DNA of 64,000 nucleotides from Nanobdellota archaeon (GTDB lineage: Archaea; Nanobdellota; Nanobdellia; Woesearchaeales; SKGA01), in contig JBNJHD010000001.1 in the NCBI GenBank assembly GCA_051819805.1, positions 8,962 through 72,961 on the forward strand, given 5' to 3'. How positions within the stretch are numbered: the stretch's first letter is position 1; each line of letters opens with the position of its first letter. Positions 3,056 through 59,805 of this stretch are shown here, piece after piece. Below the pieces are notes generated by a model. That model was not told the origin of the DNA, did no database searches, and saw only the letters and a program-made list of their open reading frames with translations. The position numbers and the translations under genes are program-made.

Positions 3056-3181
3056 GGTGGCGTTAGTGTAACCTGGTTAGCACAAGGGACTGTGGCAGCG
3101 TATAAGCGGAGCTCATACGGACTTTCGCACATCGCATGCAGAAATCCCTTAGTCTGGGTTCGAATCCCAGGCGCCGCCCCA
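3056..3181 (+). tRNA. tRNA-His (anticodon GUG) with genomically encoded G-1 and a 48-nt intron at the canonical 37/38 position; CCA encoded
   Basis: Hand-folded. Acceptor g(-1)GTGGCGT pairs with GCGCCGC+C73 with two G-U pairs. D-arm GTGT/AACCTGGTTA/GCAC. Anticodon stem AGGGA...TCCCT with loop CU-GUG-G[intron 3096-3143]A. T-arm CTGGG-TTCGAAT-CCCAG; 3' CCA at 3179-3181. Confidence 0.65.
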
Positions 3182-6024: not shown

Positions 6025-6158
6025 GCGGGAGTGCCGGAGACGGTCGCTGTGTTCGATAATTCATTCGATCGTAGTGCTCGCCGGAGTGGTCAAACGGGCA
6101 CGGTTGAGGGCCGTGTGGCTTAGTGCCTGCGAGGGTTCGAAACCCTTCTCCCGCACCA
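6025..6158 (+). tRNA. tRNA-Leu (anticodon GAG), class II with long variable arm, carrying a ~47-nt intron at a non-canonical D-arm position; CCA encoded
   Basis: Acceptor GCGGGAG (6025-6031) is perfectly complementary to CTCCCGC (6148-6154), followed by A73 and CCA. D-arm CCG/GAGTGGTCAAA/CGG and anticodon arm CACGG-UUGAGGG-CCGUG. Variable stem GGC..GCC. T-arm GAGGG-TTCGAAA-CCCTT. A 47-nt insertion flanked by duplicated CCGGAG separates positions 8-9 from the D-arm. Confidence 0.6.
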
Positions 6159-26962: not shown

Positions 26963-28291
26963 ATGGCATCACTATCAGACATCCCGGATAACTCCAGAGT
27001 ACACATCACGACACAACACGCAAGCTACGAAGGAATACTTCTTCCCTCAGAAAGCGACTTTATTGTTCTTAAGCTTGATTCGGGTTACAACGTCGGCATC
27101 AACCAGAAACACATCAAGGAAGCGAAACTCCTTGAGAAAAAACCTGTTTCTGAAGTGCCTGAGGCTGCAAAAAAAGAGCAGGATGAGTCACTACCTAAAC
27201 TATCTATCATTCACACGGGCGGAACAATAGCATCAAAAGTCGATTATGAGACTGGAGGGGTAGTTGCACGATTCAGCCCTGAAGAACTACTAGAATTATT
27301 TCCTGAACTAGGGGATATTGCACGGATCGACAGCAAGCTCCTCGGAAACATGCACTCGGATGACTTCAACTTCTCACACTTCAACACGATAGCTTCAGAA
27401 ATACACAGGCAAGCAAAAGAAGGACAGAAGCGATTCATCGTCACATCAGGAACGGACTTTCTCCACTACCTGAGTGCAGCGCTCTCATTCATGCTCAAAG
27501 ACTTGCCAGTAGGAGTGCTCGTCGTGGGATCACAACGTTCGAGCGATAGGGGATCAAGCGATGCAGCGATGAATCTCATCTGCGCGGCACAATTCCTCTC
27601 AACAACAGAATTCCACGGCGCTGGAGTATGCATGCACGAATCAACAGAAGATAACAGCTGCCTTATACTACCTGGAACGAACGCTCGCAAGATGCACAGC
27701 TCCAGAAGGGATGCGTTCAAGCCGATCAACACGACAGCATACGCGAAAGTCAATTATGAGAACAGATCGGTCGAACTCCTGAGAGAATTGCCTACAAAAC
27801 GATCATCAAGCATGCCAAGCAAGATAGAGTTCATCGGAAAGCCAGGCAACGAAGACAAGCTCAAGATAGGAATGATCTATTCACGACCACACATGCACGC
27901 GCAAGAATTCGATATATACAAGGATTATGATGCGCTGGTTCTTGTCGGCTCGGGACTCGGACACTTCCCAGTCTCAAAAACTGAAGGTACTGGTCCTGAC
28001 AACACGAAAAACCATGAGAAGATCACAGAGCTTGTAAAGAAGATGCCTGTTGTCATGGCAACACAAACGATCTATGGGCGAGTGCATCTTAACGTCTACA
28101 GTCCTGCACGAAAAATAAAGGATGCTGGTGTGACAGGTCATCTGTCAACAATGACGCCGGAAACAGCATATATCAAGATAGCATGGCTTGTAAGCAACAA
28201 GAACAAGGAGCAAGCCGAAAACCTTTTCATGACAAACATGGTTGGAGAACTCGATAGCATTCCTGAAGAAGCATTCCTCAACACACGATAA
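26963..28291 (+). CDS. gatD: Glutamyl-tRNA(Gln) amidotransferase subunit D
   Basis: Asparaginase-like domain with HTGGTIAS threonine motif; N-terminal GatD-specific domain; adjacent to gatE. Confidence 0.85.
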   Translation: MASLSDIPDNSRVHITTQHASYEGILLPSESDFIVLKLDSGYNVGINQKHIKEAKLLEKKPVSEVPEAAKKEQDESLPKLSIIHTGGTIASKVDYETGGVVARFSPEELLELFPELGDIARIDSKLLGNMHSDDFNFSHFNTIASEIHRQAKEGQKRFIVTSGTDFLHYLSAALSFMLKDLPVGVLVVGSQRSSDRGSSDAAMNLICAAQFLSTTEFHGAGVCMHESTEDNSCLILPGTNARKMHSSRRDAFKPINTTAYAKVNYENRSVELLRELPTKRSSSMPSKIEFIGKPGNEDKLKIGMIYSRPHMHAQEFDIYKDYDALVLVGSGLGHFPVSKTEGTGPDNTKNHEKITELVKKMPVVMATQTIYGRVHLNVYSPARKIKDAGVTGHLSTMTPETAYIKIAWLVSNKNKEQAENLFMTNMVGELDSIPEEAFLNTR

Positions 28292-28308: not shown

Positions 28309-30162
28309 ATGATAGCAAAAACGCCGCAACTCAAGACGACAATCACAGAAGACGATCTCAATGAACTCAAACTCACTTGCGGGCTGGAGATTCATCAGCA
28401 ACTTGAAGGGAGGAAGCTCTTCTGCCACTGCCCGACAATTATCCGCGATGACAAGCCGGACTTTGAAGTGAAACGACACTTGAGAGCGAGCGCTGGAGAA
28501 TCAGGGCTGGTGGATAAGGCAGCAGCTGCTGAGACGAAAAAGAAGAAACACTTCATATACCAAGGATACAATAACACGACGTGCCTTGTGGAACTTGATG
28601 AAGAACCACCACACGAAGTGAGCGGAAAAGCGCTTGATTCTGCATTATCACTTTCCAAACTCTTCTCGATGAACATCGTAGACCAAGTACGTTTCATGAG
28701 AAAGACAGTCGTTAACGGGTCGAACACGTCAGGATTCCAACGGACAGCAATGATCGCATCAGACGGAAATCTTGAAACAGAAAGCGGTAACAAGATTGGT
28801 GTCGAAACTATTTGTCTGGAAGAGGATTCTGCAAAGGATATCGCTACGACCGGTAAATCAAAAACATACAACCTCTCACGACTGGGAATACCTCTCATTG
28901 AAATAGCGACAGCACCTGACATACATCATCCGGAGACAGTCAAGGAAGTGGCAGAATTCATAGGGATGGCTCTACGAAGCCTTGACAATGTCAAACGAGG
29001 ACTCGGGACGATCAGGCAAGATGTCAACATCTCCATAGAGAAAGGAGTGCGCGTGGAAATCAAGGGGGCACAGGATCTCAAGATGTTATCTGCACTAGCG
29101 CGAAACGAGATGTTACGCCAACACAACATGCTCCAGATATTCAAGGAGCTGAAAAACAGGAAGGCAAACGCTGACAATCCTATCCAAGACATCACTAACA
29201 CGATCAAGAATTCAACATCAAAGGTCATACAGAGTGCTCTCAAGAACGAGAACGGAACAGTGCTTGCAGTCAAGCTGGAAGGCTATGCTGGCATTACAGG
29301 ATTGGAAGTCCAGCAAGGACGACGATACGGTTCGGAACTTTCAGACCACGCGAAAGTCATGGGAGTCAAAGGATTATTCCACGCTGATGAACTACCTAAC
29401 TACGGCATCACAGAGGAGGAGAAACAAGCGATATTCCAAACGCTTGATGCGAATCCTGCAACTGACAACTTCCTGCTTATCGCGGCAGAGAAAGAAGTCG
29501 CTACCAGAGCGATGGAAGCAGCGATCAAAGCAGCTGGAACGCTCACGCTCGAAAAATCCGTGCGCCAAGCAAGGTCTGACGGAACGACACAATACATGAG
29601 ACCTATGCCAGGAGCAGCGAGGATGTATCCTGAAACGGACGTCGAGCCGATTACGATCGACAAGGACTCCATCGCTGTGCCGGAATTATTGTCTGATAAG
29701 ATCAACAGACTCTCAAAAAAGTATGATTTATCCGAAGAGATGACAAAACGACTCCTGAAAGACGGAATCAACATCGAGAAACTCACAGAAACATATCCGA
29801 ATGTGAAACAATCAGTTATTATCGACCTCTACTATTCACTACCAGCACAGCTCAAGAAGAAAGAAGGACTCGATATTGAGATGAACCAACATGATGTTGA
29901 CTTGCTCTCACGGCTCAACGATAATATCATCACGAAAGAATCTCTCCCTGAGATCCTGAAACAGCTTGCCCGAGGAAAGAAAGTCAACTATTCAGACTTC
30001 AGGCCTTTGACGATTGAAGATGTCAAGGACGATGTGAAACAAGTGGTCAAGGAGATGGAAGGAGCGCCGATGGGAGCTATCATCGGAAAAATGATGGGCA
30101 AATATAAAGGAACAATTGATGGGAAGGAACTCAGCGAGTATGTCAAGAGTCTTCTGAAATGA
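28309..30162 (+). CDS. gatE: Glutamyl-tRNA(Gln) amidotransferase subunit E
   Basis: 617 aa; GatB/E catalytic fold (..CGLEIHQQL.., Cys cluster CHCPT) and C-terminal YqeY-like domain; follows gatD. Confidence 0.85.
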   Translation: MIAKTPQLKTTITEDDLNELKLTCGLEIHQQLEGRKLFCHCPTIIRDDKPDFEVKRHLRASAGESGLVDKAAAAETKKKKHFIYQGYNNTTCLVELDEEPPHEVSGKALDSALSLSKLFSMNIVDQVRFMRKTVVNGSNTSGFQRTAMIASDGNLETESGNKIGVETICLEEDSAKDIATTGKSKTYNLSRLGIPLIEIATAPDIHHPETVKEVAEFIGMALRSLDNVKRGLGTIRQDVNISIEKGVRVEIKGAQDLKMLSALARNEMLRQHNMLQIFKELKNRKANADNPIQDITNTIKNSTSKVIQSALKNENGTVLAVKLEGYAGITGLEVQQGRRYGSELSDHAKVMGVKGLFHADELPNYGITEEEKQAIFQTLDANPATDNFLLIAAEKEVATRAMEAAIKAAGTLTLEKSVRQARSDGTTQYMRPMPGAARMYPETDVEPITIDKDSIAVPELLSDKINRLSKKYDLSEEMTKRLLKDGINIEKLTETYPNVKQSVIIDLYYSLPAQLKKKEGLDIEMNQHDVDLLSRLNDNIITKESLPEILKQLARGKKVNYSDFRPLTIEDVKDDVKQVVKEMEGAPMGAIIGKMMGKYKGTIDGKELSEYVKSLLK

Positions 30163-30221
30163 ATATTTTTCCTGACCGATAAGCTTTTTAAAAGCGTAAA
30201 GGTTCTCTCTTTTTCAAAGAC

Positions 30222-30572
30222 GGACCCGTGGCCTAATCTGGATAGGGCAGCAGCCTCCTAAGACAGTGGTCAGGGTGCGGCTGTAGAGCAAGTACAGTTA
30301 ATTTGTCCACTGTTTCGGCGAGAGCTGAAGCTTGGGGGTTCGAAACAGCTGGTTACGCTCAGCTGGCACGCATTAAGGGTTTCGTGCGCGTTGCACACTC
30401 AATCCCTTTGGGTTTATTCCCTTTTAATTGCTGCTTACGCTCTGTTGGCATGCATGTAGGGTTTCGTGCGCGTTGCACACTCAATCCCTTGTTTTTTTCA
30501 TGTCGGCTTTAGTTCAAAGCTGGCTTACTGTGTCAAGCGATGTGACTGCTGACGAAAGTCCCCTCGGGTCCG
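30222..30572 (+). tRNA. Putative tRNA-Arg (anticodon CCU) interrupted by two or three introns, including a ~214-nt insertion in the T-loop; no encoded CCA; followed by a T-run
   Basis: 5' acceptor GGACCCG (30222-28) is perfectly complementary to CGGGTCC (30565-71). D-arm GCCT/AATCTGGATA/GGGC; anticodon stem GCAGC with loop CUCCUA.. T-stem GGGGG + TTCGAA (30334-44) is completed by T + CCCCT (30559-64) only after removing 30345-30558. Exon ttcg / intron cgaa could form the 4-bp core of a BHB-like motif. TTTTTTT follows at 30575. Confidence 0.45.
30376..30490 (+). repeat. Two identical 33-nt direct repeats (AGGGTTTCGTGCGCGTTGCACACTCAATCCCTT) separated by 49 nt, each able to fold as an imperfect hairpin
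   Basis: Exact copies at 30376-30408 and 30458-30490. Ends are inverted (AGGGTTT / AATCCCT) with an inner GTGC..GCAC palindrome. Located inside the putative T-loop intron of the tRNA-Arg locus. Confidence 0.6.
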
Positions 30573-30705
30573 CGTTTTTTTACTTCTTTTGTGTAGTGCG
30601 TATACTTCTTGCTCTTGAAAATTGTCATCCTCTTATCGTCATACTTCGTGAACCAATACTTTTATAAAAGGGTTTAATCCTATCAATTGCAGAGGGTTGA
30701 GTACT

Positions 30706-32618: not shown

Positions 32619-35600
32619 TTGGTCATACTTAAGCGTACTTTAATATTTTTTATGCTGCTTAGTGTGGTGTTGTCGGGCGTAGCACTGACAATAGCTGCAT
32701 CTAGCGGGCAATCTATCAATCTATCTAGTTCTGGGACTCCTGTTTCTATCCGAATACCATCCCTGACTTCTGAAACCTTAGAACTCACCCTCTCAGGCAA
32801 TGAGTATAGTCCTATCGAGACGAAACGAGACCCTATACGCTACAACGATCCGGTCGGATGGCAGCTCATCCTTTCTAACGGCACGACCAACAAGAGTATT
32901 GACTATACCACACCCGAAATAACTGTCGATGAAAGCATTGATACGACTCCCTCGTCATGGCTTGCGACAATCACATTCTCAACACAAGCATCAACGACGT
33001 ACACTGACCTGCCATACACATTTGAAGCACCGACAACAAGAGATATAGCAACGTCCTCGCTTCTCAGTAAACTGTCAGCAGCAAATGACAGTGTAAGTTT
33101 TATACTGCCACAACTTCATTCTGAACGGACTATCATTATCACAGGAGCACTTGGTAACGGGACGTCACGAACTGCAGTGGCGGAAACTCCTGAAGGGATT
33201 TACACGATTGAGTTGAGCAGCGGTATTCCTGAGGAATTCACTGTGCAAAACGCTTCAATTTCAACCAAGCTTGAAGAACTCAGGACTAACCAGACTCTCA
33301 CTATGCATTTACACGCTCCTGTGGCACTTGATTCAGCAACGACATTCTATATCTGGAACCAAAAACAAAGCGAAAAAATTCCTCTCAGCTATTCTCTCGA
33401 ACATAATGGCACGCTGGCAATCATCAATATACCTCCTTCTCTTCTTGAAATGTTGAGCTTGCCAGAAACATCACAATACTTCTACGGGAATCTCGAACTG
33501 GCAATGGATAATGCTCGGTATTTCACATTCACCACGGATAAAGAATTCTACTTCCCTGAAGAGACAGTGACATTTAACATCCTCCCTGAGAATACGTCAT
33601 CGTTCATCTACGTGACGACTCCTTCTGGAGAACCTGAACTTATTACTGGAACAGAATACACTCCGGAAGTTCCAGGAACCTACACTGTTGATGCCTCGCT
33701 CTATCATGAGAATATCAGTGAAGAACAGGCTCTCACATTTGATGTTCTCAATGCCACTCTTGCAAATCAGACTGAGGATGAGATCGTTCTGGAATTCAAC
33801 AATACCTATGAAGGACAGCAAAAGACTATCAGAGCATCAGTCAAGATTCCTGAACATGCTCGAGACGTTGCCCAACAACTCAATACACTAGAGCAAGAAA
33901 TCAACGTCCTGAAGAAACAAGACGAATTATCAGAGTCATTGAATGCTGTTCAACAGGGATTCAGTGCAATGAGCGCATCAACGAATATGATACAGCAATC
34001 AAATGCTCCTGCTTCTGTGAAAGAACAGATTCTTCAGAAACGCCGGCTTCTCACGCAGAAACGAGAAGAGCTCAAAGAACGAGTCAACAATAGAGTAAAT
34101 GCGACAGTCAATCTCGCTAATTCATCCTCAGACAGGGTCAAATCAATCGCATTCAACAACCTGGAAATCAAGAACGACACGATCGATCTCGGATTCAAAG
34201 AAGATGTCGATATCAACGAAGCGACTTCAAGTTTTGCAGTCGATCCAGAACGAATTAATTTCACGAACGCAACTATCACAGTCAATGCGACAGGAAATTA
34301 TCTATACAAGTGTCGCGATTGGAATTTCAGCGGTCAATACTGTCCGGAACCAGTAACTACCTGTACTGGAGTCAAAGGTGTAAATAGGAGTTGCGAGACC
34401 TATGGCGGTTGGAAGAAACTCAAGAAAGTCACACCAGGACAACTCTACACGATTTCCGTAGTACCGAAAGACCCTGCGTATGCAGAGTATGATGCAACGT
34501 ACACTGCACCTTACTGTAACGTGAGCGAGTCACCATGTATCGCTAACTCGAGTGTGCTCATGTCTTCAGGCACATATACTAACCAAAATGAGCCTAACGA
34601 GCCCAATACAGTTGATGCTTGTACTGATGGTGGAAGCGGTACGTATGAGTCAGATGAGTATGTCCAGAATGTCACGATCACCAGTCTCAATAACAGCAAT
34701 TTCCAGACTGGAGACACAGTTAACGTGTCAGCATGGGTTCATATTTGGGGGACTGCTGATGATGTCGTCAACTTCGTTTACGCAAACGATGCATCAAGCC
34801 CGAGTTGGACAGTCAAGGCAGGAGATGTTCCTCTCGATGGAACCGGCTACCAGCAAGTGAGCACGACATTCACGCTTGATGAAGTGGTGGGAGACCATGT
34901 CATACGAGTGCTCAACGAGTATCAAGGAGCGGCAACGACTACCTGTGCAAGCAACGGATACCATGATAACGATGATGTCGTCTTCAAGGTTGATAGGAAA
35001 TTCAATGTAAGTAATGCCCAATATAATTCGACATTCGGAGCACCATACTGTAGTTACGGGGCAAGTCCATGTATTGCGTATTCAGAACTTCTCAAATCAG
35101 CAGGAACATACACTAATCAGGAAGAGCCGAACTATCCGAATACAATAGATGCATGTAGTGATGGTCATAGCGGTACGTATGAAGGTGATGAGTACGTTCA
35201 GAATATAACAATTGAAAGTCTGAATCATAGTACGCTGCAAGCGGGAGACACTATCAATATCACCGCATGGGTGAATGTTTATGATGCTGCAACTGATGTA
35301 GTGAATTTTGTTTACACGAATGATGCATCATCTCCTTCATGGACGGTGGTTGATGGAGATGTTCCTCTCGGAGGAACCGGCTACCAGCAAGTGAGCACGA
35401 CATTCACGCTTGATGAAGTGGTCGGAGATCATGTCATACGAGTGCTTAACGAGTACAACGGTGCAGCAACAACTACCTGTGCAAGCAACGGGTATCACGA
35501 TAACGATGATGTCGTCTTCAAAGTACAACAGGCTGATACAGCTATCAACTGGCTAAATGAAACTTGGAAGTGGAGAATGCCATTCAACATTTCCAATACA

Positions 35601-38600
35601 GCCGGAGATCTTACTGGTTTCCAAGTTCAAGTCAATCTCACGCCTAGCAACTTTGACTTTGAAAAAGCGAACGCAAACCTGAGCGATCTGCGATTCACGT
35701 ATTACGAACCTGATGCACAGACTGAAATCGAGATCCCTTACTATATAGAATCAAATACAAGTCTCGATTATAGCACAGACGCATACACTGCCAATATATG
35801 GATAAGAACTGATTTGGTCAATGATACGAACACCACACACTATGTCTACTATGGAAATCCTGATGCTCAAAGCGAATCGAATGCAAGCGCGGTCTTTGAT
35901 TATTACAATGGTTTCGAAAGCGAAGTGGGATTCACAGATGGTGATCTCACCCTGACCAGAGATACCAATTCATCAAAGAAAGGAGATTTTGGTGTCACAG
36001 GAAATGGCGGTGGCACTCATACTCAGGCATATCGGAGTGGTGTGAATAGTGGTAGGGATGTGATCTTTGAAGTCTGGACGAAGTCATATGATGATGGGGG
36101 AAGCCAGGATACATCCCTTGCCTCTATCGCATTCGGTCATCCTAATGCAGGCGCAACTACTGATGGTTATCAAGCATTCATCGATGAGAGAGACAACGGT
36201 GAAGCATTCGGTCTCAGAGAAAATTATGGTGTTGGAACTCTTACTGCTTCGGCAACACCATTGACATATTATAATACTTGGTACTTCCAACAAGCGATAT
36301 GGAAATCAAATGGAGAGCTCGTCCACAATCTATATGATGAAGATAAGAATCTTCTTGGTTCAATAACAGCGACAGACAACACCTATACGGATGGAGAGTA
36401 CGGTCTCGGTTTGTGGCAGGCAGCACACTTCGATGAGTACAGGGTGCGAAAATACGCAAATCCTACTCCTGGAATAAGCGGTACTGGTGACGGAGAATTC
36501 GTCGGAGTCATAAACGTCACTTTCGACGAACCTACTGATGGTGATAGTACAGATACGTACAACAGCTTCACGATGAACGGTACTGTCGAATGCATCCGAG
36601 GAAATGATTGCGGTAATATCAGTGTCTGGTACCAATACTACACAACAAGCACGCCAACACAATCAATCACCGAGACCACGACAGCAGACTTCGCAAGCTA
36701 TGAGAGTGAATACAACACGTCACAATCAAACGGCAAACTCTATCTGGAGAACAAGAACTCGGAAACCAGCTGGTGGGATGGTCTCTGGCTGTACAGGCAG
36801 AACTTCACAGTCTACAATCCGAACAGCGATACAATCACTGATTATCAAATCAATCTCCAACTGAACAGTTCAAACACGCAAAGCAACTTCCCATGGAGCA
36901 ACTCAGCAGAATTGCGATTCGTCGTGTATGACAATGATACTGGTGACACCACTCTGGTGGATCACTGGGTTGAATCATGGGATCAAAGCGGTCAGAACGC
37001 AAGCGTCTGGGTTGAGATTCCTGAGTTTGAAGCGCTCAATGATACGATACTGCACATATACTATGGGAACAGCGGAGCGGCAGATATCTCCAACGCTTCA
37101 GCAACAATGCTCTATCATGATGATTTTGAGGATGGAAACGATGATGGGTGGACAGAAGAGACAGGGTCGTGGAGTGTCACAAGCGGTGAATACCAACAGA
37201 CGACAGATATCACTGACTATCTCATCTCATCAGCGGGAAGCAGTTCGTGGACAGATTATACGGTAGAAGCTGATATCAACGTGACAAACGATGGATCGAC
37301 ACGACCATTCGCCGGTATCGTGACACGATTCCAAAATACTGATAATTATTATGTGGCTGTGCTTGATGACTCTACAAACCTTGCAATAAGAAATAGGGTC
37401 GGAGGGGCGTGGGATGTTCAGAACGACTACACGATAAGTTTCGATACTCTTGATTGGACGCATTTACGAGTCGATATCTATGATGATGGAGGACAAGATA
37501 CAGTCAAAGCCAGTGTCAACGGCTATACGCATGCACATAATTTTACCAATTTCAACTCTGGAAAAATTGGTCTTTTCACGCACGGCCACCAACCATACTT
37601 CGATAACGTCATCGTAAGGACATTCGCAGAACAAGAGCCGGTCATCACAGCAGGAACTGAAACAACTTTGGAGAGAGCATCACCGGGAGAATATCTCTCG
37701 GACGTGTTTGATACAGGATCATACGATGCTCAGTTCAAAGGAATAACCTGGAATGAAGAAACAGATGCTGACACGACACTCAACATATACACGAGAACAT
37801 CTCCTGATAATGTATCGTGGTCGAACTGGTTCTTAGAAATATCAGGAAATACTATCAGTTCACCAAAGGATAACAGATACATCCAATACAAGGCTGAGAT
37901 GGGCACGACCGATACTCAAAAGAGTCCCTTGCTTGATGATATCACTATCAATTACACTATTTTAAGCAAGTCATGGAAAAATATTTCTTTATCAGGTCAG
38001 ACCTTCACAACATCAAATCCTTATGAATGTGCTGTTCTCAGTGATAATTGCACACCATCATTAACTGTTCTACCAAAAGAGTTTGGTAATTATTCGCTCA
38101 GGTTCTTGGTTGATAATAATGATTATGATATTATCGATACAACAACTGAACCTCATAATATTACAGTATATCTTCAACCATCCTTTTCCTCGTTCACAGC
38201 AACAGTGAATCCGGTATCTATTAACGATACTACTGAACTCTCAGCAGTACTAGTTGATGGATCTTCCCAATCATTATCAGGATATAATATTACTTTCTAT
38301 GATGAGACACATAATGGTACTGACAGGTATGAAATAGGATCGACACTGACTGATGCTTCAGGAGTGGCAACTATTGATTATCAAGTTCCTATTGATGGAC
38401 AGCTCTCGATTCACACGCTCAACGCAAGCTATGCTGGCGACCTATCTGAGTTCAAGAAAGGAATTGAAGTTACTCGTTCTCTTACAGTCTCTTCAACACC
38501 TAAGTTCAATGCTATTTCAGTCAATCCTGAAAATATCGGTTTCGGAAAGAACCTGACAATCGCAGCCAACATCACAGATGCTGTCGGTCTTTCAACAGTC

Positions 38601-41600
38601 AAGATCAACATCACGGACGAATCAGGAACGACAACACAGTATGACATGGCATTATCAGGACAGTTGTACGAATATACATTCCCTGAAAAATGGGAGACTG
38701 AAGAATATGAGTTCATGATTATAGCAACGAATAATGATGGTATAAGATCAATTTCAGAAACTAGATCATTTGCAGTAGATGTCACTGCAGAATTCGATAT
38801 TGTTACTGAGAAGGATGAATATAAGAATGAAGAACTTGTCAATCTTAAACTAGTGAAAGATGGTTGGTATTATCTTGGATGGACACACCGGACTCCAATC
38901 ACTGTTGTAAGCCAGAACAAACTGAAAGACTTCCAGATATCGTTTGAACTAGATGAAGAGAACTTTCAATTCAATCAGGCTAATGCTGATGGAAGCGATA
39001 TACGGGTAACATATCTCAATAAAACTAGTGGAAACGAGGAAACAATTCCTCATTGGATCGACTCATTCAATAGAACGTCAGAAGAAGCAACTATCTGGGT
39101 AAAAACACCTCTTCTGGATGATGCTATTGATAATGTATTCTACATTTATTACGGAAACGATACTGCGACAACGACAAGCAACGGTACAGATACATTTCTC
39201 TACTTCGAAGACTTCGAAGGAACATTTACCTGGACTGACTATGGTTCAGGAAGCGTTGTGAAAGACTCGACAAGGTCATATGACAACACTTACTCCGGAC
39301 ATAAGATCAACAACAACGATCCTAACGGTGCATACGATGATGTTGGTTTCACGTTCGGACGTGATGTCATCATGGAATTCTGGGTGAATAGGAACGCAGG
39401 ATTTACTGGTGGAAACCAAGATAGGGTTGGTTTCATCGATAATAGCGGTAACGGTTATGGATGGGTATTTATCCATAGTGGTTCTGAAATCGCAGCAGAC
39501 AGGCGTGATTCATATACTGGAAGTAATCTTCCAGGAACAACTGCTACTGATTATACTGACACATGGGTCTTCGGTCGGTTCGTGGTCAAATCGAACGGTG
39601 TCGTAGAAGCATACCGATATGTGAATGACACGTTAGCAGGAAGTATGGCAATCACAGATAATACATACAATAGTTTCACACGAGCATATATCTTTGGTGG
39701 AAACGATTACTGGGTGGATGATATCAGGATCAGGAATTATGATGCAGGAGTCATCGAAAAACAATACAAGATGACAGAACAAGGAATCCATGGACTCCTC
39801 AACAAAGGAGATACTGAATTTGAAGGACAACTAAGAATGCTCGTCCAGGAATGGACAGGATCAAGCTGGCAGAATATCATGCCACCTGTTGTTGAAGATG
39901 AATGGACGAATGTCAGCGGATATGAAGCAATCGAACTTTCAGGTCTTTGGGATGCAAAAGGTGCTTGGAACACTTCAAACCGTGATTCAGGAACATACAG
40001 AGTATATGCTATTATGGAAGATCCTTCCTATAATACGCTATACACTACAGATGGTCAACCGCTTATCGGAACGTACAATTTCACGATCATACAATCATCA
40101 GTAGAGCTGGAAAACCTCACTCACGAGAATGAACATGAAGACACGATCAACGAATACGAAACAGGAGATGTCATCGACTGGATCAACGCGACTGTCAAAG
40201 CGTATGACAACACAGCGTACAATGCCTATGTTAACCTCTCACTCTATGATGATTCTAAACAACCTCTTCCATGGGGGCCTCAAGAAGAGCTCAAGAACTG
40301 TGGAACACTGACTGAAGGAAGCACATGCGAACGACAGTGGACGAATTCCAGCAACGGTTACATCATTCCTCAAGATGCAATTGCAGGAACCTACACCTTC
40401 TACTGGAATGTCAAGTCAGATTCCGATAATGGACCTGTCAACATCAACGACTCAACATCATTCACCATCCACAGTGTCCCATCAACAGTCTCAAGTGCTC
40501 TTGAGAAGATCCGTGTAGAAAAACCTAACTCTACACTCTACAACTTCACGTTCACGAACCCTTGGAGCGAATCGCTCACAAGTACGACTGCGACAATCAA
40601 TTGTCCGACGATGAGCGGCTTTGAGTGCGATTCACTCGTGTCAGGAACAAGAACTGAAAATATAGGTACGGTCACTTCTTCAGACACAGTTACGGTACAG
40701 TTCAATGTCTCGGCTAACGAAAGCGTACCATCCGACAACTATAACATCTCAATAGAACTCAATTACACTAACCCTGGTGCTGAAGATAAAAGCTGGTCAG
40801 GACTCGGTGAGCAGATTGTGGAAGTGAGAATCGCAGGTATACTCGAGATTACAGACTTTTACCATCCTAATAATATTACACGAGGTATCACTTATGACTT
40901 TGATTCCCATATGAACAATTCAGCAGATAATACTGCCAATAATGCATGGTTGAACTACACCTTGCCTGCATCATGGCAACTCATCTCAGGAACCTTAAGC
41001 ACAACTTTCGGTAGTCTTGCACCTGGTGAGATCGGTTGGAACAATATCTCTGCACAACCAGAAGCAGATGCACCTCTTGGACCACGTCAAGTGCGTCTCG
41101 ATTCCGGAGCCGATGATGGTAGGTATGATTTCAAGGTATATTCGGTTGATGTGTACGCTCAAACAAATATCAATGCTTCAAAAGATCGTTATATCGTCAA
41201 CAGAGGAGAGAATGTTAATCTTTCAGCAACATTATATTATGACAACTCATCAACTATCAACGGTCAAGAAATCGAATTCGTCGACACGCGAACAGCGACA
41301 ACAATCGGAACTGCAACAACTAACACGAGTGGAGTAGCGACCATCCCTTATTATATCAACTCAACATCTCCGCTTGGAACTCACACAATAAATGTGACTT
41401 TTGATGGTAGCGTGACTGACTATCTCCGTCCAAGCTATAACACCACAGATATCAATATTCATGAAGTACCTGAAATATCGAATATAGTGATTTCTCCAAA
41501 TGTGACCAGCTATGGACAGGACATATGGATTAACGCGACGATAACAGATACTGATGATGTCGATAGCGCATGGTATGAGATCACATTCCCTAACGGCACT

Positions 41601-44600
41601 GCAAAGAATTATTCGATGAACAATATTCCTCCTTCAGACTACTATTCAATATTCAATGATACGTGGCAGAACGGAACTTACTCTATAATCATCTATGCGA
41701 ATGATACAACATCTGCACGATCACAAAGCGAAGAATTATTCATCATCGACAACGCTGATCTGACACTAGGACTCTTGACAGATTATCCTTCTTACGGACA
41801 GAATTCGGATGTCAATCTGCTGCCGACCACTGCAACGACGTGGTGGAATACGAATTACGGATATAAGCGAGTGAGAAATATCACGAACACTGCAGGAAAC
41901 CTGACCGAATACCAATTCTTCATTGAAGAGAACCTGTCACAAGCATATGCAGATGACCTTATCAACGATGATTGTAAGAGTGTGAGGTTCACTTATTATA
42001 ACAGCACTTCAAGAAAAGAAGAGAGAATACCATACTATGTTGATTATTGTAACTTGACCGTCGAAGATAATGCCGGGTTCTGGGTGAAAGTTCCTTTCCT
42101 TGAAAATGATACTGACACGAGAATTTCAATGTATTATGGTAACACGCAAGCGGACTCAGAAAGCAATCTCACTGAAGTATTCACCTATGATACTAGACAA
42201 ACAATAGGTTATGTCGTTTCAGATCTCACTGCAACAAATGGAGTGACGTTGACAGGAATAACTGCTGAAGGGTCGAATGTGCAAGTGGGAGGTTCAGTTT
42301 ATACTATCGGTGAGCTCCAGACAAGAACCCCTGGTACTTTAGAAGTATATGACCCGATCAAAGCAACGAATCCTGTACAAGTCGAAGGAAATGGTGCATA
42401 TGATGGTGTTGTCGTTCCGATATCATGGGCTTCAACAGAGTTCCTGCTCGCAGGAATGAGGGGAACAGAAGATTTCTGTATGCTCAGTCCTTGGGGTGAT
42501 GCTAGTGTTGACATCTATGATGGAAGCAGTGGAACGCCTGAGTGGAGTGGCACTATCAATAACACCGGAAACTGTATCAATAACGATATTACTGAACGGA
42601 ATACCGGACGTATCACTTCGGACAAGCCAATTCTCTTATTCAAGTCAACTTCCGATAGCAATGACGCTTATCCTGTGTATCCGGCTACAGATGAAGACTT
42701 ATATCTCGCTTCACTTTCCAATCAAGGGTATGTGGCTGCGGGAACGACAAGCACGACTGTTGACTTCTACGGAAGCAGTGGTGGAACAGGTTCAGAAACG
42801 ATACAGAATGTTGATGCGAATGCTGCCACTTACCTTACTACTGGAGATTCAGGATCAGGAGATGCAGTACGGTTCTCTGCAGATAATCCTGTAGGAGCTA
42901 TCCAGCAGGCAGACCATGACGGAACCGAATCCAGTGTTGCAGTACCTCGAAAAGAGATGAGTCCTGAATTTGCAGCAGCACATGACGCGCAATATATTGC
43001 TGTAGTGTCTGGCGATCAAGATGTTTCTTGTAGCATTTACGATACGAATGGACTGGTAGCTACAAACACTACAACGGGAAGCATAGCTAATCGTGTCTAC
43101 AAGACCTGCTTCGGCTGTGGCAATGATAATATCTTTGTCAATGGTCCGTGGAAGTTGGAATGTGACAAACCAGTGTGGGCGTATTATGAAGAGAACACTG
43201 ATGATGCGGAAACGAACATGATCAGTTATAAGCAGATGAGAACGAAAGTCTATCCAGAACCTGTAGTTTCAGAAAGTGAAGAACAGCAAGTGGGATCGCA
43301 CATATTCAACGACTTTGAAGATCAGGCATCAGGATACCTCTACCTGACAATCCAGACAAACAACTCAGGAAGCTGGCAACATGTCGATACAGTCGTTGAT
43401 GACATATCAACATCCACAAAAAGGGATATTCCACTCGTCTCAGGTCTCGATCTTTCATCAATATGGAATGCCACTCCGTGGAATACTGCCAATTATGATG
43501 CAGGAACATACAAGGTGTATGGTGAATTAAGGGCTCCTGATGGTTCTGTCCTTGAAAACACTAACGGGTCTGACATCAATGGATACTGGACTTTTACCAT
43601 CGAAGAACCCGATCTCCAACTTGATCTTGATGATATAAGAATATATGATCTTTCAAATACTGATAACTCAAATTGGCATTATTATACGAACGATCTTGAG
43701 GGTTCGGGTCTGAACACAACCTATACTTTAGGAAAAGATAAAATATACAGGGTTGAGGTTGATATACTCAATTCAGGAAGTTCCACATGGGATATCAACG
43801 AGACAGATGTGGATTACAATTATTTGAATAGTGTCTGGCCTGTCAATGAGACAGATGATATATGGTATTCAGATAAAACATCAATCTCCGATCGGAGAAA
43901 CGATGCTACAAAAACAACAGGTTCATTCGATGGGAATGTCTCATGGGATACTCTTGCTGATGATGGTAGCGTGAGTTCCTCAGGAACAGCAACGTTCTTC
44001 TTCATAGTCAACACGAGCACTGAAGAGACAAGACAAGTGAACTTCAATATAGAACACAGCACGTTCATCAAGAGTGATTATTCTACGTGGGAAATTATTG
44101 ATCTTGATGAAGAAATACCTTATATCATCAATGATAATTATAACATCACTACACTTGATATCATCCGAGGTAATGATTTAACCTTATTCGGTCAATGGAA
44201 TGAAGAGATTGATATGGCTAATGCCACCTACTCCACTTCAGGTCCTTCGACATATGTCACCACAACAGACACTAATCCTGGAGGAAACTGGACGAACTTC
44301 ACGATAACAAGCTATCCGACATGGTATCTGGGAGATCATGATGCGAAGCTCACTGCAAAAGACAAGAGCGGTAATGTGAATGACACGCTCGCTTATATTC
44401 CGTTCACAATCTGGGGTCTGGCGCAGATAGAGAGTATGACGTCAGATAACGAACCAGCAACAGAGCAGGAAAACGCAGTCTATGACACAGCTTATACAAC
44501 ACCATATTGTAACTCAACACGTTCACCATGTGTCGCTAACTCGAGCCTGCTCATGTCTTCAAATTCATATACTGATCAAAATGAGCCGAACCAGCCGAAT

Positions 44601-47600
44601 ACTGTTGATGGCTGTGCTGATGGTGGAAGTGGAGGATATGAAAGTGATGAATACGTCCAGAACATCACTATAGAAAGCTTGAACCATACGCTCATCCAAC
44701 GAGGAGACACGGTCAATGTCACAGCAACTGTATATGTTTATGATACCAATTCCGATTTTGTCAACTTCGTCTATGCGAATAACGCGTCAAGTCCAAGCTG
44801 GACAGTCATGGCGGGAGATGTGGCGCTGCCTGGAACCGGCTATCAGCAAGTGAGCACGACATTCAAGCTTGATGATGTATCAGGAGACCATGTCATTCGA
44901 GTCCTCAACGAGTACAATGGAGCAGCAACGACTACCTGTGCAAGCAACGGCTATCACGATAACGATGATGTGGTTTTTACCGTAGCAGAAGAGAATATTC
45001 CATTGCGATGTAAAGTGGTCGATGCGACAGACAGCGATAGTCCTATAGAAAACTATAACGTATCATTCTATAACAATGACGGACTGCTTGACTGGAAACT
45101 GACAGATTCACAAGGATACGCATATTACAGGTATTATGATCAGTCTCCAGGACCTGAAACACTCTCCTGTAAGATAAGAAATGATACAGTCAATTATTAC
45201 AAGACAGACAGCAATAACGAAAGTTCAATCAATATCAACACACTAGAAGATATTCCGCCGACATACTCAAGCGTTTCAGGACCTACGCCGGTACACAAGG
45301 GAGATGTCATTACGCTCTCGACATTATGGCAGGATAACTATCAACTAGACACTGCAACACTCCAGATAAACACGAGCGGAGCATACGTCGATGAAGATAC
45401 TATTGCTCTCTCTGGAAATGAGAGCTGGGCGAACTTCAGCTATACAATCTCTAACTCATTGCTTCCAGGAACCTTCGGGTGGAGACAGATCGCAAACGAC
45501 ACGTCAAAGAATACGAACCAGACTCCTGATCAGACATTAGAAGTGTGGGGATACTCGCGAGTCGATTCTTCATCAATCTCGCCTTCTAGCATCCAGGAGA
45601 CGAACAGCACGACGATGACATGTACAGTGCAAGATGCAGGTGACAACAGTGGACTTCAGGACTATGCAGTCTACTTCTGGTACAAGAACTCAAGTGAAAG
45701 TACATACACGGCTCTCGGTAGCAACACTACAGATGCAAGTGGACAGGCGAGCTACTCGTTTGTCGTTAATACAGCAGCAACATATGATGTGAAATGTAAT
45801 ATCACTGACAATGCAACGCAACAATATAATGTATCAAGTCCTGATAATAGGATTGAAGAACTGAATGTTATCGTAGGTGATGATACCCGACCGCCACAAA
45901 TCATCGGAGAAAACTATACAGTCACACCATCTCTGGTTCACAGAGGAGGCTGCATCGATATTTCAGGATTATGGGATGAAAATATCAGCGAAGCGTACGT
46001 CAGATACAACCAGACATCAACTGAATATACGCAAGTGAACATCTCAAGCCCGTACACTGGCAACTGGACGAACACGACCATCTGCACGAACGAGACATGG
46101 GATCTTGATGACTATACGTTCAAACTATTTGCAAAAGATCTAGAAGGAAATCGTAATGACACGCTCTCCTACAAGACAGTCGCAGTCAAAGGGCTGGCTC
46201 AACTTGAATGGGATGCGCCGACAGGAGACCAGAACAGGACTACGCTGAATGTCAGCTGTAAGGTCATCGATAACGAGACCGCTAACCCTATATCCGGATA
46301 TCCAGTAACGTTCTACGATGGGGATAAAGGTATTTCAATAGGAAATGATGATACGAACGCTTCAGGAATCGCACAGATACAATACGATTACTCGGGAGCG
46401 CTTGTCGGACCTGATGAACTCTCATGTACATTCAGCGATGAACCATCGCTCAACTACGAAACGACAGGATCAACAACTGTCTCAGAGACAATTGACTTCT
46501 ACGGATACCTCAACGCGACAATAGCAACCCCTGTTTCCGACCAGATCCTCCACAGAGGAACTGGAGAGTCGCTAGAGGTAAACGTCGTCGACGAGTTCGG
46601 TAACACGCCGCTTGACCAAAACGGCAACACAGCAGCGCTGTCAGCGATCTGGAGAAACGCTTCTTCAGACCAGATAGCGACAGGTACGACCACTACCTGG
46701 AATGTTCCATCAAGTTACCAGCTCGGAAGCGATACTCTAGAAGTCGATGTCTCTGAGACTTATTATTACCCTGACAACGATAGCCAGAACGTAGAGATAT
46801 GGAGCTATGCGCAAGTGGACTTGACAAGCCCGACTGCAGACACATACGGTGCTGGAGTCAATCTTGATATCAACTGTACCGTGACTGACGAAGCAAGCAC
46901 TGATTCTATTTCCGGCTACGATGTCAACTTTTATGATAATGGGGCCTTGCTCGGCACAGGGACAAGTGATGCCGCTGGAGAAGCGAGCTTGACCGTCAGC
47001 ACGGACACGCTCGGAGATGGCAGTCATGACTTGAGCTGTAACATCAGCGACAATCCTATAAACTATTATGAGGCAGGAGCGAACAAGGAAGATCTCGTCA
47101 GCATAACAGTAGACGGCTCGACACCGGAAATCTCATACGCTGCCAATACGGATACGAACGGAACGTATGACAAGACATGGATACTCGTCAATGTCACGTC
47201 AGTAGAAAGCAATCCTGACACTGCACTGCTCTACTGGAACGGAGTCCCTGAAGAATTCACTTACACGGACGGAACGAACTACTGGGTCAACAAGTCAGTA
47301 CTCTCAGACGGCAATTATGAGTTCTATGCGTACATCAACGATACAGCCGGCAATGAGAACCAGACCGGACTACGGAACGTCACGCTCGATACGACAGCTC
47401 CAGTAGTCACGCTCGACAATCCGCTCAACACGACATACAACACGTCATCATTTGATCTCAATTATACAGTCGTCGAAGAGAATCCTGATACGTGCTGGTA
47501 CAAGATAGACAGCAATCCGAACCAGACGATAGCAGGCTGTTCCAACATCACGATAGGATCGCTCGGCGAGGGAACACATACAGTCGTTATAGCAGCTAGC

Positions 47601-50600
47601 GATACGGTCGGACATGTTGACGAGGACAATGTCACATTCACGATAGACCAGACACTACCACAAGTCACAATAGATAACCCAGTGCTCGGTGTTGAATACA
47701 CTGATAATGATGTCGATCTCAATTACACAGTCAGTGATGACAGGAATGTGGATGAATGCTGGTATAAGCTCAATGGTGGAACCAAAGTCGCCATGCCAAG
47801 CTGCCAGAACACGACACTTACCAGTCTATCAAACGACAACCACACGATAGAAGTCTTCGCTAACGATACGGCAGGAAACATCAACTCATCATCACTCTGG
47901 TTTGAAGTGAACTATAGCGTGCTCACAGCAACACCACTTTATCCCGATAATGATACGATCATTGCCAGTCAGACGATAAATGTCAATGTCACGACGAACA
48001 AGCAGGCGAACGAGTGTAACTACTCTCTTGACGGTGGGGCTTATACTCCGATGACAAACTATACGTTGCTGGACTGGTCAGCATCAGCAGGTCCGCTCAC
48101 TGAATCAACACATAACGTCAGATTTACCTGTACAGATGGTATCAACACGTCAACGACAGATTTGGTCTATTTCACGATCGACGTGACAGGACCGACGATC
48201 ACCTATGAACTACCTACACCGGGAGATGGTGATGGTCGAGGAGTAGATTGGGCGGTTGTCAACGTCACGCTTGACGAACCGGGAGATACAGCGCTGCTCG
48301 AATGGGAGAACAGCACAGCTATCACGAACATCACGATGAACCAGCACAATAGCACCAGCTACTGGTACAACATGTCAGGACTGGCAGATGCGACGTACAA
48401 CTACACAGTCTACGCCAATGACACGATCGGCAACATGAACAACGCTTCAACACGAGAAGTGATCATATCAACAACAGCACCAGTCATACAACTGGATAGT
48501 CCGACAGCACAGGAATACACGACTAGTGTTATCGATCTGAATGTGAGTTCGAACATGGAAATTGATGAATGGTGGTATGAGTTCAATGGACGTAATTTCT
48601 CACTGATACCTAACACCACTATCACTGCAGAAATGAACGAGAATAAAATTACTGTCTATGGTAATGATACTTTCGGAAATATAGGAAATGAAAGCGTCAC
48701 GTTCATTGTGAATGCGACATCCTGGACGGATGACTTCACTGGACTCACAGGAATTTCCAGTAGCAGTAATGTAAAAACCGGAGGGGCTGCTCAGATCGAT
48801 CCGTGCTGGCCACTCTATCACGAAGAGGACAGTGACGACTATAACAGGGATACGTGCTGGCATTATCGAAAACCAGTAACAATAAGCGCGTCATCGCAGC
48901 TTAAAGACTACCAGATGCTACTCAACATCGACTTGAGCACTGAATACTCGCAAGGAAAACTACAGGATAACTGTGAAGACCTCAGATTAAGCTATTACAA
49001 CAGCACGAGCGGCGATGACCAGAAGATCAGTCACTGGATAGAAGATTGCAGCGACAAGAGCAACATCAGCGTGTGGGTCAAATCACCGCAGATAGACACT
49101 AGCTCGACAACACTGCATGCCTATTATGGAAATGACCGGGCAGGAGATAGTTCCAACGGAACGGCAGTCTTTGAGATGTTTGATAACTTCAACACAGTCT
49201 CATCGACGGACTGGGGAAGCAATGCAGCTAACTGGAACACTGAAAAAGGAGTGGCGTATCCGACTGTATCAGGATCAAGCTCCCGACTCACTCACGACTA
49301 TTCATTCGGCAGCACTTACGCAACAGAACTCTATATGAAAGCGAACGCGACAAGCGGTTCAGCAGGTTACTACGGACTTGGTAACGGTGCAGGAACAAAG
49401 TATTTACGACTCTATCTTGAACCGTCAAATAATAGGGTAAGTCTCTACAATGGAGCGAATAATTACTACTCTCTCGATTCAGGATCGTACCAGAAATACA
49501 CTATCATCTCAGACTATACGAATGATGAATACAAACTGCTCATCAACAATTCACAAACAGCACTTGATCTCTCATCAGCAGCATCATCAAGTACATCGTC
49601 GCCCACGTTCTATTCATACTATACTAACGGTCTTTATCTTGATCACATAGCGATAAGGAAGTATGCAGGTAATACTCCTTCCATGGATGCTATTGGTGCT
49701 GAACAGCAACCGACAGTCAATGGATCAGTGGAAAGCATTGTCGTCAAACCTCTCGAACTCTATAGTTGGGATACGTTTTCAGCAACAGTAAATACTCCTG
49801 GAACGACCAGTCTCACCTTCCACCTACTTAATGAATCGGGAAGCGATCTCTGTGGTGACATCTCTGAAGCACAGATAACAAGCGGTTATGAAGTCTGTAG
49901 CGCTGCAAACTCATATGATAGTATTGTTCTTCAGGCAAACTTGACGACAGCTTCATCATCCGAAACACCGCAGATAGACTCATGGACCATCAACTGGAGC
50001 GAAACAATAACGACACAACCTGATCTCATCATCAATTCGATAAACTTCACGCCAGAAAGGTTCATCGAGAACAAGAACGTGACTGTCAATATCAACGTGT
50101 CAAACAACGGAAGCGCGGACGCAGGAGAATCAACAGTTAGGCTCAATGTCTTGCTCTGGAAAGGGAGCAGGATTCTCAAGAAAACATACGAAGAGAATGT
50201 GACTTTACCAGTAGGAGCGTCGACAATCGTCAGCTTCAACTGGACAGCAGCCATAGGAACGCACATCTTTGACGCGTATGCCGATGCAGATAATGTTATT
50301 CTCGAAAGCAATGAGACAAACAACAACCTCACAGTCAACGGTTCCACGTCAGCATGGCAGACGTTCTACGGGAACTACAGCTATACCTACTTCCTAGGAG
50401 ATGCTGATAATAGGAGTTACATGAACTGGTCAAACTTCGTCGCAAAAGGAAACATATACTATTCAGATGTGGATGCCAGCTACTATCCATTCGACCTGCA
50501 ACCGCTTGACGGAACGAACGACTTCACAGAAGCGGATACAGCACTTGGCATGACATACTTCAACGATTCCATCAGTAAAGAATTCGACAGCAATAATGAT

Positions 50601-58729: not shown

Positions 58730-59761
58730 ATGACTATACGAATACTGCTTGTGGACGACTCATTGTATGCTCGACATACAATCATGAACGTGTTAGATTC
58801 TTCAAAAGCACTCTCTGTAGTAGCTTCTGTGTCACGAGCTTCTCAAGCGCTTGATAAGATACGTCAGACTGGTCCTGATGTTGTTCTTATGAAAGTAGCT
58901 CCGCATGATCCGCAACCAGTCAAAGAGATAAGAAGGATAATGAAGGATTGGCCTGTACCACTACTTCTTCTAGCTACTCAAGCAGATGATAACTCGCAAA
59001 AACACATTTTTGATGCGATGGATGCAGGCGCTATCGATTTTCTCATGCAACCACCCGCAAACCAACTCAACTCTATCAAGGATGAACTCATCAGGAAGAT
59101 ACAACAAGTCGCACTGGCACGCTTGCCGGAAACAAGAACTGTCACTCATAGAACAAAACCGTTATCTGGCGATTTCAGCAATTCAAAAGAAAAAATCATC
59201 GTTATAGGATCATCAACCGGTGGTCCGAGAACGCTAGAACGACTTCTTGGTGAAATTCCTGCAAATATCCCTGCACCGATTCTTGTCGTGCAACACATGC
59301 CAAAAGGGTTCACTAAATCATTCTCTGAGCGACTCAACAAGCTCTGCTCCTTGGAAGTGAGGGAAGCAAAAGATGGTGAACCAGTAAAAAAAGGCGTGGC
59401 ACTCATAGCGCCAAGCGGTCAACATATGCTGCTTGAAGAAGATTATCTTGATACTGCAAAAGTACGATTGACCGATGATCCTCCCGAACTTGGTGTTCGT
59501 CCTACAGTCAATAAACTATTTAAATCAGCGGCTTTGGTCTATGGATCGAAGGTAATAGGGATAGTACTTACAGGAATGGGTTTTGATGGAACTCTAGGTG
59601 CCAAAGCGATAAAGGAACGTCATGGTACGATCATAGCACAATCAAAAGAATCATGTGTCATCTACGGGATGCCGAAATCAATTGTGGATAATGGTTTTGC
59701 CGATGAGATCGTTTCGCTCGATCAGATGACTGTGGCACTCATACAATTACTGGAATTATAA
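58730..59761 (+). CDS. cheB: Chemotaxis response regulator protein-glutamate methylesterase CheB
   Basis: N-terminal receiver (ILLVDDS) and C-terminal methylesterase domain (GSSTGGP..., catalytic S/H/D context). Confidence 0.85.
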   Translation: MTIRILLVDDSLYARHTIMNVLDSSKALSVVASVSRASQALDKIRQTGPDVVLMKVAPHDPQPVKEIRRIMKDWPVPLLLLATQADDNSQKHIFDAMDAGAIDFLMQPPANQLNSIKDELIRKIQQVALARLPETRTVTHRTKPLSGDFSNSKEKIIVIGSSTGGPRTLERLLGEIPANIPAPILVVQHMPKGFTKSFSERLNKLCSLEVREAKDGEPVKKGVALIAPSGQHMLLEEDYLDTAKVRLTDDPPELGVRPTVNKLFKSAALVYGSKVIGIVLTGMGFDGTLGAKAIKERHGTIIAQSKESCVIYGMPKSIVDNGFADEIVSLDQMTVALIQLLEL

Positions 59762-59805
59762 TACTATACATTCATTACTAAAGGCAAAAAATAAGAGGTG
59801 GTCAT

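Follow-up and report, generated by a model that had tools for sequence, protein, structure and literature searches.

Introduction

Bulge-helix-bulge (BHB) introns are defined by two 3-nucleotide (nt) bulges, which hold the splice sites, and by the 4-bp helix between them (strict form, hBHBh'), and the relaxed forms of this motif are designated HBh', hBH, and BHL. In this study, we describe a transfer RNA (tRNA) gene for tRNA-Arg(CCU) that is located at positions 30222-30572 in a 64-kb stretch of DNA from a Nanobdellota archaeon (contig JBNJHD010000001.1; this whole stretch is hereafter called the window) and is interrupted in both the anticodon loop and the T-loop. The T-loop site, 59/60, is a documented intron site in DPANN archaea, namely in the tRNA-Cys of ARMAN-2 and in a tRNA-Pro with introns at both 53/54 and 59/60 (PMC3239211). 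Multi-intron tRNAs are typical of the Thermoproteales (Sugahara et al. 2008 and Fujishima et al. 2010, as summarized in PMC4033280 and PMC8450103), and three is the maximum number of introns given for an archaeal tRNA in PMC3239211, PMC4033280, and PMC8450103.

A survey published in 2018 found more disrupted tRNAs in DPANN archaea, including Woesearchaeota, and tied them to alpha4 endonucleases with an L3 loop (PMC5829648). The same survey reported a raised share of non-canonical and multiple introns and predicted that further disrupted tRNA genes are still hidden. The intron of Haloferax volcanii tRNA-Trp bears a box C/D guide RNA (cited in PMC4090602).

Gene organization and predicted spliced product

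The segment 30222-30572 very probably represents a functional gene for tRNA-Arg(CCU) in a Nanobdellota/Woesearchaeota archaeon, with two protein-spliced BHB-type introns. Read directly from the sequence, the gene specifies a 351-nt precursor with three exons and two introns, and its layout is GGACCCG-TG-GCCT-AATCTGGATA-GGGC-A-GCAGC-CTCCTA / 62 nt / A-GCTGA-AGCTT-GGGGG-TTCGAA / 214 nt / T-CCCCT-CGGGTCC-G (slashes, proposed splice sites). The gene and all of its elements described below are located on the forward strand. Exon 1 (30222-30260), which is identical in the closest relative (L047), covers tRNA positions 1-37 and contains the 5' strand of the acceptor stem, the D arm, the 5' strand of the anticodon stem, and the loop sequence CUCCUA. 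Exon 2 (30323-30344; positions 38-59) contains A38, the 3' strand of the anticodon stem, the variable loop, the 5' strand of the T stem, and UUCGAA, and exon 3 (30559-30572; positions 60-73) contains U60, the 3' strands of the T and acceptor stems, and the discriminator G (30572); CCA is not encoded at the 3' end. Intron 1 (30261-30322, 62 nt) lies at the canonical site 37/38, and its boundary is ambiguous by 1 nt, with the product unchanged either way. Intron 2 (30345-30558) is exactly 214 nt long and lies at the non-canonical site 59/60 in the T-loop.

Most of this architecture had been recognized in an initial annotation of the DNA. The acceptor halves GGACCCG (30222-30228) and CGGGTCC (30565-30571) are indeed perfectly complementary, the 5' half is followed by a D arm (GCCT/GGGC, with GG in the loop) and by the anticodon loop that the annotation read as CU-CCU-A (CU-CCU-AA at 30255-30261), and the T arm begun by GGGGG-TTCGAA (30334-30344) is completed by T-CCCCT (30559-30564) beyond the 214-nt insertion. 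The annotation also postulated at least one further intron. This exists as the 62-nt intron 1, but it had been placed between the anticodon and T arms, whereas it actually resides inside the anticodon loop.

When 30261-30322 and 30345-30558 were removed in silico, ARAGORN called the resulting 75-nt sequence as tRNA-Arg(CCT) with all four arms, including an acceptor stem of 7 bp, a D stem of 4 bp, and a T stem of 5 bp with the loop TTCGAAT. This call and the variation in intron length at the same nucleotide among orthologues (see the next section) uphold the earlier identification of a tRNA-Arg(CCU) with a 59/60 intron. The ARAGORN check that had been suggested for the locus thus succeeded after both insertions were removed, whereas the unmodified gene was missed by ARAGORN with default settings and by its intron search (-i) with introns of up to 400 nt. 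Rfam likewise yielded no match to the locus at the gathering threshold (whole window) and no tRNA or intron family at E ≤ 10 (30100-30700), and ARAGORN at a relaxed threshold produced 167 calls, most of which were spurious. If the T-loop intron alone was removed, ARAGORN gave a tRNA-Asp(GTC) with a long variable arm; this one-intron model was rejected, as the orthologues fix the anticodon arm as CCU. No second tRNA-Arg(CCU) was found within the 64-kb window.

Because the window contains 2,224 perfect 7-nt inverted pairs spaced 60-500 nt apart, the complementarity of the acceptor halves is not significant by itself. The finding rises above chance owing to the full cloverleaf obtained after intron removal, the exact conservation and covariation among orthologues, and the unconstrained fold of the precursor (z = -3.5).

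Intron sites and covariation in orthologous loci

Orthologous loci were collected by GatE synteny and by one metagenome pattern scan, for which exon 2 and the start of the intron served as the query. The scan matched two contigs, and the sequences were therefore too few for a covariance model of the intron. In L047, whose GatE is 83% identical, the gene contains 86 nt at 37/38 and 269 nt at 59/60 (L047 4556-4824), and in L002 (GatE, 71%) the two introns are 59 and 58 nt long, respectively. L004 (6123-6389; GatE, 57%), which is identical in L045 and L182-L184, has three introns, in the D-loop (48 nt), at 37/38 (56 nt), and at 59/60 (88 nt). The tRNA-Arg(CCU) of L046 (1934-2075; JGI contig Ga0315277_10133692) apparently carries four introns, located in the D-loop (15 nt) and at sites 29/30 (13 nt), 37/38 (21 nt), and 59/60 (18 nt). 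Introns are found at 37/38 only in L003 and L020 (GatE, 60 and 57%), the single intron of L185 (minus strand; GatE, 56%) is 33 nt long and lies at 29/30, L052 (5431-5560, minus strand; GatE, 62%) has only a D-loop insertion of about 52 nt, and L022, L053, and L057 (GatE, 58-61%) contain no intron.

Four sites (D-loop, 29/30, 37/38, and 59/60) are thus used in one orthologous gene within a narrow clade. Across ten orthologues, site 59/60 is occupied by 18, 58, 88, 214, or 269 nt at the identical nucleotide or is empty, as in L003, L020, L022, L053, and L057, and site 37/38 contains 21-86 nt or none. The spliced forms of all orthologues were called as tRNA-Arg(CCT), that of L046 being a clean 75 nt.

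In nine spliced or intronless orthologues, 98.9% of the cloverleaf positions are paired and 10 of the 21 pairs are compensated; when the 3' partners were slid by one to three columns as a control, pairing fell to 52% or less. The C6-G67 pair is unique to the window and is replaced by U-A in all other orthologues, a substitution that links the two halves lying 340 nt apart. None of the 75 exon nucleotides differs between the window and L047, yet only 51% of the 4-fold degenerate sites of GatE are identical, indicating that the exons are under strong selection and that the gene is not a wreck. These presence/absence polymorphisms and covariations, together with the exon/intron boundaries, the cloverleaf, and the BHB geometry described next, are direct observations.

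Precursor folding and splice-site motifs

The unconstrained minimum free energy (MFE) structure of the 351-nt precursor (-135.4 kcal/mol) reproduces the acceptor, D, and T stems. In this structure, the exon sequence UUCG (nt 54-57; 30339-30342) pairs with CGAA near the 3' end of intron 2 (30553-30556) to form the central helix of a BHB motif, and the two strands are followed by the bulges A58 A59/A and AG/U60 (slashes, proposed splice sites), respectively. An inner helix, h', of about 14 bp, in which CAGCUGGUUACGCUC (30346-30360) is the 5' strand and GAUGUGACUGCUG (30539-30551) the 3' strand, joins both ends of the 214-nt intron. Imposing the exact 3-4-3 bulge-helix-bulge geometry on the fold costs 1 kcal/mol. 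Both introns are BHB introns in relaxed form. The relaxed motif had already been proposed from exon TTCG and intron CGAA, and the proposal is borne out by its formation in the unconstrained fold and its covariation with TTCA/TGAA in L004.

The central helix at 59/60 is UUCG/CGAA in the window, L047, and L046, and is UUCA/UGAA in L004, where a change of exon G57 to A is paired by a change of intron C to U. The bulges A58 A59/A and A(G or A)/U60 are common to all five loci compared (window, L047, L046, L004, and L002). The inner helix covaries as well, with CAGC/GCUG in the window and CAAC/GUUG in L047, representing a G-C to A-U compensation. In L047, the A concerned is carried by the exon-adjacent module only (see below for the modules), matching the U in the 3' tail of the intron, which indicates selection on the pairing required for the BHB motif.

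Proposed expression and maturation

The enzymes, the order of steps, and the expression of the gene are deduced as follows. A TATA-box-like element, TTTTTAAAA (30185-30193), is located roughly 30 nt upstream of the 5' end of the tRNA, and a block, AAGCTTTTTAAAA, at this promoter-like element is conserved with L047 amid an otherwise diverged spacer. To judge from archaeal promoter architecture, TTTTTAAAA probably functions as the promoter. The oligo-T run that had been reported past the 3' end is a T7 terminator (30575-30581) just past the discriminator G, and T-rich runs are also found 3' of the gene in L002, L004, and L047. Transcription of the 351-nt precursor would be directed by the TATA-like element (about 30185-30193) and would end at this T7 run.

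In the precursor, the T stem (GGGGG/CCCCU) would be extended by the 4-bp helix U54-G57/CGAA, flanked by the bulges AA/A and AG/U and by the inner helix of about 14 bp. The archaeal splicing endonuclease would cleave within the two bulges, at the A59-intron and intron-U60 junctions, and the same endonuclease would excise the 62-nt intron at 37/38. An RtcB-type ligase would then join the three exons to yield the 75-nt tRNA and would probably circularize the introns. Addition of CCA, which has to occur later because it is not encoded, would be the last step. As the T-loop is unable to form until intron 2 has been removed, T-loop modifications and the D-loop/T-loop contact would follow splicing.

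A tandemly duplicated module in the T-loop intron

Intron 2 contains a tandem duplication with an 82-nt period, and the 61-nt cores of the two copies are 90% identical. Module copy 1 extends over 30348-30429 and copy 2, which is orthologous to the last module of L047, over 30430-30518; a partial third 5' segment begins at 30519. It is the tandem duplication of a structured module of about 65-82 nt that accounts for the length of the intron (214 nt). Two copies are present in the window and three in L047. Three of the four independent short-read assemblies of the L047 species break inside the array (contig ends L048, L049, and L050), suggesting breakage induced by the repeats or heterogeneity in copy number. 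Metagenome-assembled genomes of this close relative are available from GCA_046539405.1, GCA_046546105.1, and SRR21542053.

Each module contains a hairpin, GGG-UUUC-[GUGC GCGUU GCAC]-AC-UCAA-U-CCC, which is identical in sequence in copy 1 (30377-30406) and copy 2 (30459-30488). Hairpins of the same architecture are found in L047, GUGC(G)-UUUC-[CCGU GAAAAA ACGG]-UCAA-CA-GCAC, and in L004, GGG-UUUC-[GCGU GAAA ACGC]-UCAA-G-CCC. The inner stems differ and yet remain complementary in the three genomes (GUGC/GCAC, CCGU/ACGG, and GCGU/ACGC), and the inner hairpin is lost in one L047 module. In a structural pattern search of 368 kb, the motif was detected in these T-loop introns and at two isolated sites elsewhere (window 401-433 and L027), with about one match expected by chance. 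Over 119 nt comprising the last module and the 3' tail, the window and L047 share 87% identity, compared with 51% at the 4-fold degenerate sites of GatE, and UUGUUUUUUCAUGU, an apparently single-stranded stretch of the intron, is conserved. A further T7 run lies within the intron (30492-30498), is equal in length to the terminator of the gene, corresponds to T6 in L047, and is preceded by the conserved hairpin. This run may terminate transcription prematurely or act as a U-rich site for protein binding.

No Rfam family matched the intron in the window, L047, or L004 loci, and Intron_gpI and Intron_gpII were unmatched even at E ≤ 10. A collection of phages gave no match to intron 2, and a scan of viral contigs with the 14-mer CTGGTTACGCTCAG gave chance matches only among the matches listed, the longest extension to the intron being 21 nt. 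We rejected a box C/D guide RNA in the intron of the window and L047, in which C/D boxes are lacking: UGAUGA is absent from 30345-30558, and a CUGA at 30549-30552, which is UUGA in L047, lies within the covarying h' helix (overlap, 30549-30551). The T-loop intron of L004 ends in a perfect C box and D box (GUGAUGA-N6-CUGA), which are not conserved in the window or L047. A reading of the hairpin motif as a nested BHB (GGGU/ACUC in the window copy) was also dropped, as it is not conserved in L004.

The sequence GGGTTTATTCCC in the tail of module 1 (30410-30421) forms a small hairpin resembling a degenerate T arm (GGGGG-TTCGAAT-CCCC). The resemblance is suggestive only, but either this hairpin or the hairpin motif could represent a T-arm copy that has degenerated, and GGGTTTATTCCC could be a trace of the origin of the duplication.

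Evaluation of alternative interpretations

Several observations weigh against a functional, spliced gene. Neither a splicing endonuclease (PF01974/PF02778) nor RtcB was found among the 20 open reading frames (ORFs) of the window scanned against Pfam, and the splicing of the precursor is itself predicted from sequence. The internal T7 run would probably terminate part of the transcripts before the 3' exon. The motifs are not strict: at 59/60, one unpaired A (30552) lies opposite the 5' bulge, the central helix of intron 1 forms three of its four pairs with a U33-C mismatch, and the central helix of L002 at 59/60 has three pairs only (UUCG/CGAU). Moreover, the duplicated module supplies competing partners for the 3' tail of intron 2, and a G27-A43 mismatch tops the anticodon stem. 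The internal T7 run would also fit a dead gene, i.e. a once-intact tRNA-Arg(CCU) broken by the insertion of a repeat into the T-loop, as would the failure of the standard tRNA finders and Rfam to call the locus and the unusual length and repetitiveness of the insertion. We nevertheless consider such decay very unlikely, since the exons are fully conserved (100%) in L047 against a divergence of about half at neutral sites, covariation in the acceptor stem spans the insertion, the BHB motif formed at the insertion boundaries itself covaries, site 59/60 bears introns in four other lineages, and the window contains no other tRNA-Arg(CCU). The internal T-run, conserved as T6 in L047, could also mark a two-piece gene, in which transcription stops at 30492-30498, and a second transcript starts within the intron, with the halves being joined in trans as in the split tRNAs known from Nanoarchaeota (PMC4033280). 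However, no TATA-like element follows the run, the remaining segment is only 60 nt long, and relatives with introns of 18-88 nt lack the run; as the halves are also contiguous and the intron ends pair in cis in the MFE structure, this arrangement is very unlikely. The probability is close to nil that the halves are attL/attR remnants, an alternative raised in the initial annotation, or that the insertion represents either a group I/II self-splicing intron or a mini array of clustered regularly interspaced short palindromic repeats (CRISPR). Integrative elements do target tRNA genes, group I introns are known in Woesearchaeota (PMC6125680), and a 32-nt exact repeat shows weak matches to CRISPR direct repeats (E = 3-5). 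The halves, however, are complementary, non-overlapping parts of one cloverleaf rather than direct repeats, neither an ORF nor an integrase is present in the 214 nt, which match no phage, the Rfam intron families are unmatched even at the permissive threshold given above, and the would-be spacers are 90% identical to each other, as expected of a tandem duplication.

A further possibility would add to the interpretation as a functional spliced gene and not replace it. The modules of the T-loop intron could be released as a stable, probably circular, noncoding RNA with its own function, or the T-run and the competing helices could throttle the rare-codon tRNA-Arg(CCU); we regard this as unlikely on balance. 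In molecular terms, it is equally doubtful that the intron harbours a previously undescribed structured RNA module, built from an outer stem, an internal loop (UUUC/UCAA), an inner hairpin, and a tail rich in U, that has been tandemly amplified (one, two, or three copies) under purifying selection and that acts as a circular RNA or in cis on the level of the AGG-decoding tRNA. Such a role is favoured by the 87% identity of the last module and tail with L047 and the retention of UUGUUUUUUCAUGU, by the compensated stems of the UUUC/UCAA hairpin in three genomes and its rarity in 368 kb, and by the difference in copy number (two vs. three) between relatives. On the other hand, only three independent sequences are available, one L047 module lacks the inner hairpin, neither an Rfam match nor C/D boxes were found in the window copy, and the short, unrelated introns of L002 and L046 at 59/60 indicate that the module is dispensable for the tRNA. 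The need for the BHB inner helix also accounts for part of the conservation.

Host assignment and other features of the window

The genes immediately upstream of tRNA-Arg(CCU) encode the archaeal markers GatD (26963-28291) and GatE (28309-30162). A protein with 100% identity to this GatE is encoded in a Nanobdellota metagenome-assembled genome (135-kb contig), and the nearest relatives are labelled Candidatus Woesearchaeota or Nanobdellota. These three lines of evidence identify the host, with a G+C content of 43%, as a DPANN archaeon, in agreement with an origin that the initial annotation had suggested as possible.

Default ARAGORN called no tRNA in the window. The sole tRNA found there by standard tools (ARAGORN intron search and Rfam) is a tRNA-Tyr(GTA) with a 48-nt canonical intron (3057-3181, +). 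A tRNA-Leu(GAG) (6025-6158, +), which encodes CCA and has a 47-nt insertion in the D-loop (about 6040-6086), was missed by both ARAGORN and Rfam. The boundary of this insertion is ambiguous, as GCCGGAG is present at both ends, and removal of the insertion led ARAGORN to call an 87-nt tRNA-Leu(gag). A further candidate at about 54280-54390 (minus strand), hinted at by blast, is not a tRNA.

A single ORF of 6089 amino acids (aa) (32619-50888, +) encodes an apparently secreted or surface protein and contains several copies of a repeat of about 150 aa, ...NQ(N/E)EPN.PNT(V/I)D.C.DG.SG.YE.DEYVQN(V/I)TI...HVIRVLNEY.GAATTTCASNGYHDNDDVVF.V. Four further proteins with signal peptides follow it. Giant surface proteins are typical of DPANN archaea. 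In the region 58730-63887 (+), a gene for a CheB methylesterase/response regulator (identified by Pfam) precedes two large ORFs that resemble CheA and a chemoreceptor. In a reduced DPANN genome, chemotaxis genes would not be expected.

Significance and comparison with known systems

At least three tRNA genes are present in the window and two of them are hidden by non-canonical introns, with ARAGORN and Rfam finding one, which gives a concrete reason why the tRNA sets of DPANN archaea look incomplete. The orthologues of tRNA-Arg(CCU) constitute a comparative series of one tRNA gene with zero, one, two, three, and apparently four introns at four sites in close relatives, which should be useful for studying the gain, loss, and expansion of BHB introns and the substrates that the poorly known DPANN endonucleases must accept. 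The repeat-bearing T-loop intron of 214-269 nt is a good candidate for asking whether functional RNAs reside in the long tRNA introns of these reduced genomes.

Introns at 59/60 and multi-intron tRNAs are already known in DPANN archaea and the Thermoproteales, and the gene described here is ordinary in kind for a DPANN archaeon. It resembles the ARMAN-2 genes in its DPANN host, in having a T-loop intron exactly at 59/60, and in the BHB or relaxed BHB motif built on the T stem. The ARMAN-2 introns are cleaved by a broad-specificity endonuclease, and cleavage by an endonuclease is presumed for the window gene. The two systems differ in the phylum of the host and in the tRNA concerned; the ARMAN-2 introns were described as ordinary BHB introns and no repeat structure was reported, whereas the window intron, of 214 nt (269 nt in L047), contains tandem structured modules. 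Several BHB introns per tRNA, a mixture of canonical and non-canonical sites, fast gain and loss, and failure of default finders are features shared with the Thermoproteales; their hosts, however, are crenarchaeal, their endonuclease is an (alpha-beta)2 enzyme, and their introns are shared among different tRNAs, reflecting transposition. The Woesearchaeota and Pacearchaeota of the 2018 survey (PMC5829648) belong to the same superphylum as the present host and probably to the same phylum, but that survey used tRNAscan-SE and included one Woesearchaeota genome, and the window gene, its intron length, and its repeat modules are not described there.

With apparently four introns, the gene of L046 would exceed the maximum of three given in the articles cited above. 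The three-site pattern of L004 is matched by a eukaryotic nuclear gene with BHB-like motifs, in which the introns are short. The intron of Haloferax volcanii tRNA-Trp, of about 100 nt, is likewise a long BHB intron, and its sequence is conserved because a functional RNA lies inside, which provides a precedent for a functional role of the modules described here; that intron, however, is located at 37/38 and has canonical C/D boxes, whereas the window intron is located in the T-loop and lacks an RUGAUGA box. Compared with these systems, the tRNA-Arg(CCU) gene stands out only for its T-loop intron, namely for the size, the repeat structure, and the conservation of that intron.

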